Source: Escherichia coli
GTDB lineage: Bacteria; Pseudomonadota; Gammaproteobacteria; Enterobacterales; Enterobacteriaceae
NCBI RefSeq assembly: GCF_003334355.1
Contig: NZ_QOWP01000037.1
DNA length: 31,776 nt
Direction: 5' to 3' (one strand)
The position numbers and the translations under genes are program-made. Every line of letters starts with the position of its first letter. The first letter of the stretch is position 1. The notes under the pieces are model-generated. The model had not been told where the DNA came from, did no database searches, and saw only the letters and a list, made by a program, of their open reading frames with translations. This document shows, piece after piece, positions 25,797 to 27,808 of the stretch.

Positions 25797-26129
25797 ATGG
25801 CTGGTTGGTTTGAACTCAGTAAGAGCAGTGATAATCAGTTCCGGTTTGTGCTAAAAGCGGGCAATGGTGAGACTATCCTCACCAGCGAGCTTTATACCTC
25901 AAAAGCCTCTGCGGAAAAGGGCATCGCGTCGGTGCGTAGCAACAGCCCGCAAGAAGAACGCTATGAGAAAAAAACGGCAAGTAACGGCAAATTCTATTTC
26001 AATCTGAAAGCCGCTAATCATCAAATTATCGGCTCCAGCCAGATGTACGCCACCGCGCAATCTCGTGAAACCGGAATTGCCTCCGTTAAAGCCAATGGCA
26101 CAAGCCAGACGGTGAAAGACAATACGTAA
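25797..26129 (+). CDS. yegP: YegP (UPF0339 / tandem DUF1508 repeats)
   Basis: Track ORF 25758..26129; the start at 25797 gives 110 aa (MAGWFELSKSS...) with an SD (aaggag) 7 nt upstream. Two internal repeats of ~50 aa are visible. Confidence 0.8.
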   Translation: MAGWFELSKSSDNQFRFVLKAGNGETILTSELYTSKASAEKGIASVRSNSPQEERYEKKTASNGKFYFNLKAANHQIIGSSQMYATAQSRETGIASVKANGTSQTVKDNT

Positions 26130-26275
26130 TTACGATGCCGGGCGTGGGTTGTTGGCGTCCGGCGCTTTACCAGATCCCCCCACAGCGCTACAATGCCCGC
26201 CCTTAAAGTGGGGGCACTCCCCTAACCGCTTCATCAGGTGAAGCGGATCTGACCTGTCATCAGAACGAGAGAATT

Positions 26276-27637
26276 ATGTTTAAACCGGAACTCCTTTCCC
26301 CGGCGGGAACGCTGAAAAATATGCGTTACGCTTTCGCTTATGGCGCAGATGCTGTTTATGCGGGCCAGCCACGTTACTCCCTGCGTGTGCGCAACAACGA
26401 ATTCAACCACGAAAATCTTCAGCTCGGCATCAATGAAGCCCACGCGCTGGGGAAAAAGTTTTATGTCGTGGTCAACATTGCACCGCACAACGCCAAGCTG
26501 AAAACCTTTATTCGTGACCTGAAACCGGTGGTGGAAATGGGGCCGGATGCGCTGATTATGTCCGATCCAGGGCTGATTATGCTGGTGCGTGAGCACTTCC
26601 CTGAAATGCCGATCCACCTCTCGGTGCAGGCTAACGCCGTAAACTGGGCGACGGTGAAATTCTGGCAGCAAATGGGCCTGACCCGCGTGATCCTCTCTCG
26701 CGAGCTGTCGCTGGAAGAGATTGAAGAGATCCGCAATCAGGTGCCGGATATGGAGATCGAGATCTTCGTTCACGGCGCACTGTGCATGGCCTACTCCGGT
26801 CGCTGCCTGCTCTCTGGCTATATCAACAAGCGCGATCCGAACCAGGGTACCTGCACCAACGCCTGCCGCTGGGAGTACAACGTCCAGGAAGGGAAAGAAG
26901 ATGACGTTGGCAACATCGTACACAAGTACGAGCCGATTCCGGTGCAAAATGTTGAGCCGACGCTGGGTATCGGCGCACCAACCGACAAAGTGTTTATGAT
27001 CGAAGAAGCCCAGCGTCCGGGCGAGTATATGACCGCGTTTGAAGATGAGCACGGCACTTACATCATGAACTCGAAAGATCTGCGCGCCATCGCCCATGTA
27101 GAACGCCTGACCAAAATGGGCGTGCATTCGCTGAAAATCGAAGGCCGTACCAAATCTTTCTACTATTGCGCACGCACCGCACAGGTTTACCGCAAAGCTA
27201 TCGATGATGCCGCTGCGGGCAAACCGTTCGATACCAGCCTGCTGGAAACTCTGGAAGGTCTGGCGCATCGTGGCTATACCGAAGGTTTCCTGCGTCGTCA
27301 TACTCACGACGATTATCAGAACTACGAATACGGTTATTCAGTTTCTGACCGCCAGCAGTTTGTTGGTGAGTTTACCGGTGAGCGCAAGGGGGACCTCGCA
27401 GCGGTAGCGGTGAAAAATAAATTCTCCGTTGGCGACAGCCTTGAGCTGATGACGCCGCAAGGCAACATTTACTTTACCCTTGAGCACATGGAAAACGCCA
27501 AAGGTGAAGCGATGCCGGTCGCACCAGGCGATGGTTATACTGTGTGGCTCCCGGTCCCGCAGGATCTTGAGCTAAATTACGCTCTCCTGATGCGTAATTT
27601 CTCTGGGGAAACCACGCGTAACCCCCACGGTAAGTGA
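26276..27637 (+). CDS. trhP: peptidase U32-family protein YegQ (TrhP, tRNA 5-hydroxyuridine synthesis)
   Basis: 453-aa ORF (MFKPELLSPAGTLKNMRYAFAYGADAVYAGQP...) matching the U32 family as I recall it. Confidence 0.85.
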   Translation: MFKPELLSPAGTLKNMRYAFAYGADAVYAGQPRYSLRVRNNEFNHENLQLGINEAHALGKKFYVVVNIAPHNAKLKTFIRDLKPVVEMGPDALIMSDPGLIMLVREHFPEMPIHLSVQANAVNWATVKFWQQMGLTRVILSRELSLEEIEEIRNQVPDMEIEIFVHGALCMAYSGRCLLSGYINKRDPNQGTCTNACRWEYNVQEGKEDDVGNIVHKYEPIPVQNVEPTLGIGAPTDKVFMIEEAQRPGEYMTAFEDEHGTYIMNSKDLRAIAHVERLTKMGVHSLKIEGRTKSFYYCARTAQVYRKAIDDAAAGKPFDTSLLETLEGLAHRGYTEGFLRRHTHDDYQNYEYGYSVSDRQQFVGEFTGERKGDLAAVAVKNKFSVGDSLELMTPQGNIYFTLEHMENAKGEAMPVAPGDGYTVWLPVPQDLELNYALLMRNFSGETTRNPHGK

Positions 27638-27714: not shown

Positions 27715-27721
27715 CCGTTTC

Positions 27722-27808
27722 GCTGAAAAACATAACCCATAAAATGCTAGCTGTACCAGGAACCACCTCCTTAGCCTGTGTAATCTCCCTTACACGGGCT
27801 TATTTTTT
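27722..27808 (+). ncRNA. cyaR: CyaR (RyeE) Hfq-dependent sRNA
   Basis: gctgaaaaacataacccataaaatgctagctgtaccaggaaccacctcctta...cttacacgggcttatttttt matches the CyaR sequence as I recall it, including the terminal hairpin plus U-tract. Confidence 0.85.

Follow-up and report, generated by a model that had tools for sequence, protein, structure and literature searches.

Organization of the spacer upstream of trhP

The DNA analysed here is a 31,776-nucleotide stretch of an Escherichia coli genome (contig NZ_QOWP01000037.1 of RefSeq assembly GCF_003334355.1), referred to throughout as the window, and all positions are those of this stretch unless stated otherwise. Our subject is the 146-nt spacer (26130-26275) between yegP and trhP, the latter also known as yegQ. 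The yegP coding sequence (25797-26129, + strand) specifies a DUF1508 protein and was taken from the list of open reading frames (ORFs), the RefSeq annotation and a presence/absence survey. The trhP coding sequence (26276-27637, + strand), likewise present in the ORF list and the RefSeq annotation, encodes the prephenate-dependent tRNA U34 hydroxylase (function from PMC6599085). The window also contains baeS, baeR and the CyaR gene. The spacer is mostly ordinary in its make-up, with a terminator, a promoter and a leader, and in addition carries a strongly conserved and apparently undescribed leader motif, a small hairpin next to the ribosome-binding site (RBS) that we call H4. As a whole it is best explained as a composite region in which the yegP terminator and the trhP promoter are followed by a leader of three hairpins (H2, H3 and H4), with H4 acting as an RNA operator, and we lean slightly towards this explanation.

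Alignment of the spacer with that of E. coli MG1655 revealed one single-nucleotide difference and no insertions or deletions, and the coordinate offset between the two sequences was checked in this way. The sole difference lies at 26176, which is T in the window and G in MG1655; E. albertii also has T. For comparison across species we used one genome per species, which gave 80 Enterobacteriaceae loci encoding YegQ, and a promoter and leader set of 91 loci (81 from Enterobacteriaceae and 10 from other Enterobacterales genera). yegP is found only in some genera (Escherichia, some Citrobacter, Enterobacter and Kluyvera) and in most other genera baeR lies directly 5' of yegQ. The approximately 110 nt before the yegQ ATG are kept at all loci, regardless of whether baeR or yegP precedes them. 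In E. coli, the segment that begins at the -10 box and ends with the ATG was found in 5424 of 5426 complete genomes, with at least 99% identity in 5042 records.

The yegP terminator

Near the start of the spacer lies a hairpin, hairpin A (GCCGGGCG-11 nt-CGUCCGGC; 26137-26163), that is followed by GCUUU and that together with this tail forms the intrinsic terminator of yegP (26137-26168, + strand). Its arms in the DNA, GCCGGGCG...CGTCCGGC, form a GC-rich stem of 8-9 bp with a folding energy of -18.3 kcal/mol. The published Term-seq table (Adams et al., PMC7815308) lists a 'primary' yegP 3' end at MG1655 2165559(+), and this is the sole 3' end that it lists here. The end corresponds to position 26167, within the UUU right after hairpin A, and thus hairpin A and its UUU terminate the yegP transcript. 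The motif CCGGCG(C)TTTACC recurs 3' of yegP in other genera. Hairpin A resembles known intrinsic (Rho-independent) terminators in its GC-rich stem, short U-run and mapped 3' end; the U-run is short, a terminator scan made no call in the spacer, and with a tail of only three U residues the terminator may leak.

The preliminary description, which did not mention hairpin A, had pointed to a different hairpin, and an inverted-repeat search confirmed that it exists as described. Its 8-bp arms at 26226-26233 (CCGCTTCA) and 26239-26246 (TGAAGCGG) are 100% complementary around a 5-nt loop, and it ends 30 nt upstream of the ATG at 26276. When the 146-nt spacer was shuffled 20,000 times with its dinucleotide composition kept, 1.4% of the shuffles contained a perfect hairpin with a stem of 8 bp or more and a loop of 3-8 nt. 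Folded in isolation, the hairpin has an energy of -13.2 kcal/mol (z = -5.6), and the fold of the spacer as a whole is not unusually stable (z = -1.55). Also present is the reported C-rich/G-rich pair, CCCCCAC at 26177-26183 and GTGGGGG at 26208-26214, which are 100% complementary and 24 nt apart. The TACAAT-like hexamer noted between these two arms, at 26189-26194, is a conserved -10 box.

From these elements it had been proposed that the 8-bp hairpin ends yegP, or that CCCCCAC and GTGGGGG form a functional long-range structure around the -10 box, or both. Both complementarities are real and the minimum free energy (MFE) fold of the whole spacer does use the C/G pairing, but these proposals are largely refuted already and we regard them as very improbable. 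The 8-bp hairpin is not the yegP terminator, because it is followed by AUCUGACC without a U-run and because it is equally conserved in genera that lack yegP. In addition, the terminator scan was empty at this hairpin, and the Term-seq yegP 3' end maps to 26167, with none near 26250. The long-range pair has its C-rich arm inside the promoter spacer, 5' of where transcription likely starts, and about 400 E. coli genomes carry a ParDE cassette instead of this arm. Strains with this cassette, and without the C-rich arm, keep the G-run and its downstream partner, a CCCC run with which the G-run pairs in helix H2, and it is this downstream pairing that covaries. The other role suggested for the 8-bp hairpin, that of a structure in the yegQ 5' leader, held up: the hairpin is kept in the 80 Enterobacteriaceae loci, with compensatory changes at all eight of its pairs. 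It is the hairpin that we call H3.

The trhP promoter

A consensus scan called a sigma-70 promoter of trhP at 26166-26194 (+ strand), which consists of a -35 box, TTTACC (26166-26171), a 17-nt C-rich spacer and the -10 box, TACAAT (26189-26194), with 9 of 12 consensus matches. The strict promoter pattern was matched by 77 of the 91 loci. Among these 77 the -35 box reads TTTAC followed by C, T or A in 73, the spacer is exactly 17 nt long in 73 and the -10 box is TACAAT in 74. A GC-rich discriminator, GCCCGCCC in the window (26195-26202, + strand), is also conserved, with the form (G/T)CCCGCCC in 68 of the 77 loci. On these comparative data we identify TTTACC-17-TACAAT, with its GCCCGCCC discriminator, as the trhP promoter, and from the usual distance to the -10 box transcription is predicted to start at about 26201 (+/-2). 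GC-rich discriminators are typical of promoters that are repressed by ppGpp and DksA, and by analogy such repression at the near-invariant GCCCGCCC would fit a gene of the translation apparatus. A promoter within the spacer is consistent with the finding that the coding sequence with 200 bp of upstream DNA complements a trhP deletion (Sakai et al., PMC6599085).

The DNA just 5' of this promoter (approximately 26130-26170) is an insertion hotspot. In about 400 of the 5426 complete E. coli genomes a ParD/ParE toxin-antitoxin cassette of ~780 bp replaces positions 26164-26184. The 21 bp lost comprise the -35 box and most of the promoter spacer, and the -10 box and the whole leader are left intact; trhP transcription in ParDE-carrying strains may come from or through the cassette. 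A shorter remnant of the cassette, with an identical right junction, is present at one surveyed locus (L004). E. coli C25 contains a larger insertion at the hotspot that encodes a DUF4034 protein, and the Salmonella SAIDI-1 islets were reported to lie 'upstream of yegQ' (PMC7400221). All insertion variants at the hotspot end before the -10 box and the leader, and in E. coli insertions occur solely 5' of the -10 box.

The promoter spacer (26172-26188 and its equivalents) is variable in sequence, and on the coding strand the 67 distinct spacers average 54% C and 23% G. Such C-richness is unusual for a sigma-70 spacer and could provide a Rho utilization (rut) site on read-through RNA from baeSR-yegP. 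Another possibility is that Rho-dependent termination or attenuation is the main role of the region, with the C-rich, G-poor tract at 26170-26209 (45% C, 15% G) as the rut site. Such an element would stop read-through from mdtABCD-baeSR-yegP, end trhP transcripts prematurely, or both, and the hairpins would have a pausing or shaping part in this decision. The short tail of hairpin A, with its potential to leak, agrees with this, as does the fact that yegQ was among the strongest Rho-dependent cases by quantitative reverse transcription PCR (RT-qPCR; PMC9160355). Most of the C-rich tract, however, lies upstream of the predicted trhP start and would act only on read-through RNA, the tract is lost to the ParDE cassette in about 400 genomes, and the Term-seq table has no 3' end in the leader. 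A Rho element would also leave the invariance of H4, described below, unexplained. We take this possibility seriously and nevertheless judge it unlikely as the chief role of the region; it is compatible with the reading of the spacer as terminator, promoter and operator-bearing leader, not exclusive of it.

The trhP leader and helices H2 and H3

Folding of the predicted transcript (26201 onward; positions 26201-26320 were folded) yielded H2, H3 and H4 in series, with the Shine-Dalgarno (SD) sequence and the AUG unpaired. The trhP mRNA is thus predicted to have a leader of ~75 nt with three consecutive hairpins. The SD-like GAGAG (26267-26271) and the trhP AUG (26276-26278), together spanning 26267-26278 on the + strand, follow the hairpins, and the near-invariant sequence at the SD is ACGAGA.

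H2 (UGGGGG-CACU-CCCCUA; 26209-26224, + strand) lies near the predicted 5' end of the transcript and is found in the MFE structure and in the alignments. Two alignments were used: A1, a MAFFT alignment of 71 distinct leaders that is fitted to no structure, and A2, a covariance-model alignment to which more distant genera were added. In the model-fitted alignment all six H2 pairs change on both sides and 80% of cells are paired; support is weaker on the MAFFT alignment, with 75% paired. Examples of compensatory changes are GAGGA/UCCUC in Salmonella and some Citrobacter, and CAGGGG/CCCCUG in Kosakonia oryzendophytica (L048).

H3 (CCGCUUCA-UCAGG-UGAAGCGG; 26226-26246, + strand) is more strongly supported. 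On A1, each of the eight pairs has double substitutions, with 88% of cells paired; none of 500 shuffles reached the observed covariation score, and controls with a shifted register fell to 37-55% paired. On A2, 94.5% of cells are paired, and folds of the individual species concur. The sequences of the H3 stem and loop are free to vary, which argues that only base-pairing is selected in H3. Thus, the covariation demonstrates that H3 is a conserved RNA structure. H3 differs from intrinsic terminators in that it has neither a U-run nor a mapped 3' end and is part of the leader of the downstream gene, where its probable role is that of a scaffold to display H4 and to prevent alternative folds.

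A search of Rfam 15 at a permissive threshold found no family in the spacer; the only match, to PhotoRC-I (12.8 bits against a gathering threshold of 45, E = 9), is noise. The search itself works, since it recovered CyaR at 100.7 bits. Two further candidate features of the leader were rejected. A kissing interaction between the loops of H3 (CAGGU) and H4 (ACCUG) is possible in E. coli, but the H3 loop varies freely and the H4 loop does not, and the frame of a GUG-initiated mini-ORF of five codons (26208-26225) is not conserved.

The leader of Cedecea sulfonylureivorans (L077, positions 1284-1473 of that locus) carries an insertion of ~135 nt between H3 and H4, which has its own terminator-like hairpin and is flanked by a 26-nt direct duplication (TTAACCGCTTCACCCGGTGAAGCGGT) containing the whole H3 hairpin. 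The insertion has pushed the promoter, H2 and one copy of H3 upstream, and an H3 and H4 still lie beside the RBS.

H4 is a conserved hairpin adjoining the ribosome-binding site

The third helix, H4 (UCUGA-CCUGUCA-UCAGA; 26248-26264, + strand), is a 5-bp stem capped by a 7-nt loop and in the DNA reads TCTGA-N7-TCAGA. Like hairpin A it was not part of the preliminary description. It ends 2 nt before the SD sequence. In 81 genomes, 12 of the 15 positions of the H4 core are invariant; for comparison, among the third positions of trhP codons 1-60 in the same genomes 5 of 60 are invariant, and the mean major-allele frequency is 0.78. H4 is also kept in 9 of the 10 other Enterobacterales genera, with the consensus CUGA-C-Y-U-G-N-N-N-UCAG-A. 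The loop is always 7 nt long and the four inner pairs are invariant, and the loop itself reads CUUGAAC in Yersinia and Morganella, CUUGAUA in Providencia, CUUGUGA in Pectobacterium and Limnobaculum, CCUGACA in Pantoea, CCUGAAU in Photorhabdus, CUUGACA in Sodalis and CCUGCGA in Musicola. Judged by this conservation, H4 is under strong sequence constraint beside the RBS.

The conservation is asymmetric, with a fixed 5' half of the loop and a 3' half that can vary. This asymmetry and the adjoining RNA-selected helix H3 argue that H4 has a strand-specific role at the RNA level rather than serving as a palindromic DNA operator. The latter would be a CTGA-N7-TCAG inverted repeat bound by a dimeric transcription factor that blocks initiation or elongation at the trhP promoter. 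Both arms are indeed invariant and form an inverted repeat, and H4 displays no RNA covariation. Against such an operator, C-Y-T-G is fixed 5' of the centre while NNN 3' of it is free, and the extended half-sites, CTGAC and ATCAG, are not symmetric. The site would also lie at approximately +48 to +64, next to a helix that is clearly selected as RNA. CRP/FNR-type consensus sites do not use odd 7-nt spacing, and H4 was rejected as a site of this type on both spacing and asymmetry. We therefore hold a DNA operator to be improbable. A TGAC-CT-GTCA palindrome within H4 was likewise dismissed, as its GTCA is not conserved.

H4 resembles the anticodon arm of a TrhP substrate

With its 5-bp stem and 7-nt loop, H4 has the geometry of a tRNA anticodon arm, and its sequence is close to that of one tRNA in particular. 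The anticodon arm of MG1655 thrU, which encodes tRNA-Thr(UGU), is ACUGA-CUUGUAA-UCAGU. In the core, identity to thrU is 13/15 for E. coli H4 and 14/15 for H4 of Pectobacterium and Limnobaculum, and all H4 positions that are invariant among the leaders are identical in thrU. When all 95 fetched loci were scanned with the pattern CTGACYTGNNNTCAG, derived from the leaders only, it gave one match per leader and otherwise hit exactly the thrU anticodon arm. Allowing up to two mismatches to the 15-nt thrU core, there were just 2 matches elsewhere in 880,506 scanned positions. In what is a post hoc comparison, a 75-nt leader is expected to contain ~4e-4 matches when the six substrate tRNAs are considered and ~3e-3 when every tRNA species is included. 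At the positions equivalent to the anticodon (U34, G35 and U36, which are 26255-26257 in the window), the leaders display UGU, UGA and UGC, and U34-G35 is always kept. The tRNAs with these anticodons, tRNA-Thr4 (UGU), tRNA-Ser1 (UGA) and tRNA-Ala1 (UGC), are TrhP substrates and are hypomodified in a yegQ deletion (PMC6599085). The universal U33 of tRNAs is present in H4 of Yersinia, Morganella, Providencia, Pectobacterium, Sodalis and Limnobaculum, and the purine at position 37 in H4 of Yersinia, Morganella, Pectobacterium, Limnobaculum, Musicola and Photorhabdus. H4 as a fragment of a tRNA gene or a remnant of an att site was rejected, as nothing 3' of it resembles the variable or T arm of thrU.

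The likeness could also be coincidental. In that case the leader would be of a generic kind, with H2 and H3 protecting the mRNA 5' end against decay and insulating the RBS. H4 would then be conserved because it enhances translation, offers a standby site or is bound by another factor, for instance an RNase, an RNA chaperone or a small RNA (sRNA). The leader does consist of three simple hairpins followed by an open RBS, H4 is without covariation, and its C33 and C37 are unlike tRNA. Moreover, no similar motif was found upstream of the other genes of the xo5U pathway, trhO and cmoA-cmoB, so that there is no signal of a regulon. However, hairpins that merely stabilize need no sequence invariance across an order, as H3 shows, and the thrU match is statistically unlikely (about 4e-4 to 3e-3). 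The matching tRNA is also a substrate of the downstream gene's own product. We are therefore doubtful that a generic leader accounts for H4.

A model for post-transcriptional control of trhP

The leader likely functions in post-transcriptional control of trhP. In the model that we consider, H4 would be the functional core and would serve as an RNA operator for a factor acting in trans. Once occupied, the hairpin would hinder binding of the 30S subunit, as it ends 2 nt before the SD sequence; Rho could then reach the untranslated trhP mRNA and would terminate transcription. As the most likely factor we propose TrhP, or else a different xo5U34-pathway enzyme, because H4 matches the tRNA-Thr(UGU) arm and keeps U34-G35, and free hypomodified tRNA would compete for this factor. 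The outcome would be negative feedback via substrate mimicry, as in thrS. Exposure of the untranslated message to Rho would fit the reported increase in yegQ mRNA, by more than 30-fold, in a rho N340S strain (PMC9160355). In its most specific form, H4 would be an anticodon stem-loop decoy that is bound by TrhP, an anaerobic U34 hydroxylase, when unmodified substrate tRNA is scarce, with the RBS blocked and the message exposed to Rho. We put this form forward tentatively, and consider it less probable than its converse by a clear measure; the same tentative standing applies to autoregulation of trhP through tRNA mimicry by H4 in general, a suggestion that comes from sequence likeness.

Several observations weigh against control through H4 as an operator that mimics tRNA. 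The inner stem pairs of H4 never change, and its pairing is thus without proof from covariation. The outermost pair, the fifth (27:43), cannot form in Providencia, Pectobacterium, Photorhabdus, Sodalis, Musicola and Shimwellia (L076). H4 is missing in Erwinia phyllosphaerae (L091), and a search beyond Enterobacterales found none at two trhP homologues of 63-65% identity on metagenomic contigs, a sample too small to set a phylogenetic limit. All four UGN triplets are substrate anticodons, so that position 36 is uninformative, and the mimicry is imperfect: in Enterobacteriaceae, H4 carries C where tRNAs have the universal U33, and in place of purine 37 there is usually C or another pyrimidine. 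The Rho effect could equally be due to transcripts that read through from baeSR-yegP when rho is mutated, and the Term-seq table lists no premature 3' end in the trhP leader (PMC7815308). Finally, the papers on TrhP that we examined make no mention of a leader, of autoregulation or of TrhP binding to a bare hairpin or to its own mRNA.

The leader of Erwinia phyllosphaerae (560-600 of its locus) is a natural variant that has lost H4: the promoter and an H3-like hairpin are kept, the 5' arm and loop of H4 are lost and UCAGA-UUGAGA remains.

Relation to known regulatory leaders

In E. coli, threonyl-tRNA synthetase represses its own translation at the thrS operator, which mimics the anticodon arm of tRNA-Thr. 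The trhP leader resembles the thrS operator in its position, a stem-loop just 5' of the SD sequence of a gene for a tRNA-acting protein, and in the likeness of this hairpin to the anticodon arm of a substrate tRNA. By analogy the predicted logic would be the same, with free enzyme binding the mimic, the ribosome blocked and tRNA competing. The two also differ. The thrS operator has two anticodon-like domains for a dimeric synthetase and the trhP leader has one hairpin; TrhP is not a synthetase but a U32-family Fe-S hydroxylase that modifies U34; and in contrast to thrS, the 'U33' and 'R37' positions of E. coli H4 are not tRNA-like. Further analogues of anticodon mimicry among aminoacyl-tRNA synthetases are those of yeast histidyl-tRNA synthetase (HisRS) and of the glycyl-tRNA synthetase (GlyRS) with an internal ribosome entry site (GlyRS-IRES; PMC6542539, PMC3384309).

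The leaders of ribosomal-protein genes (L1, S8, S15 and L20) are likewise conserved, structured 5' leaders beside the RBS, with sequence-invariant patches that copy the primary RNA substrate of the protein. Those leaders mimic rRNA, whereas H4 would mimic tRNA, and none of their Rfam models matches the trhP region. A third group comprises Rho-dependent attenuators in 5' leaders, such as those of mgtA, corA and rho. As in the thiC and thiM riboswitches, the translational or structural state of the trhP leader would decide on Rho termination, and yegQ was reported as strongly Rho-dependent together with thiC (PMC9160355). The trhP leader differs from these attenuators in that it has no evident ligand-binding fold, its C-rich tract lies mostly upstream of the predicted start and no premature 3' end is listed for it. 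We found no description of a yegQ/trhP leader, operator or autoregulation in the papers examined that mention yegQ or trhP. The trhP leader is thus apparently an undescribed member of the conserved cis-regulatory 5' leaders, with a possible tRNA-mimic operator as its distinctive feature.

TrhP was identified in 2019 and, to our knowledge, its activity has not been reconstituted in vitro; H4 is a candidate minimal substrate or ligand for its biochemistry. If the model is true, TrhP would be the first bacterial tRNA-modification enzyme to be autoregulated by tRNA mimicry, and the substrate-mimicry feedback of thrS and the ribosomal proteins would extend to tRNA-modification enzymes. In that case H4 would moreover reveal the smallest RNA element that TrhP recognizes (stem CUGA/UCAG, C32, U34 and G35). 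If the mimicry is false, the analysis still provides a clean annotation of the terminator, promoter and leader, together with an undescribed conserved motif in the 5' untranslated region.

Other features of the locus

Of the first 12 trhP codons (26276-26311; MFKPELLSPAGT), seven belong to family boxes that are read by xo5U34 tRNAs: two Pro CCG, Leu CUC and CUU, Ser UCC, Ala GCG and Thr ACG. The 12 codons encode a conserved U32-family motif, and their make-up may have no regulatory meaning. Directly 3' of trhP lies the gene for the sRNA CyaR (RyeE; 27720-27805, + strand), which matched Rfam family RF00112 at 100.7 bits, is annotated in MG1655 and was already known.

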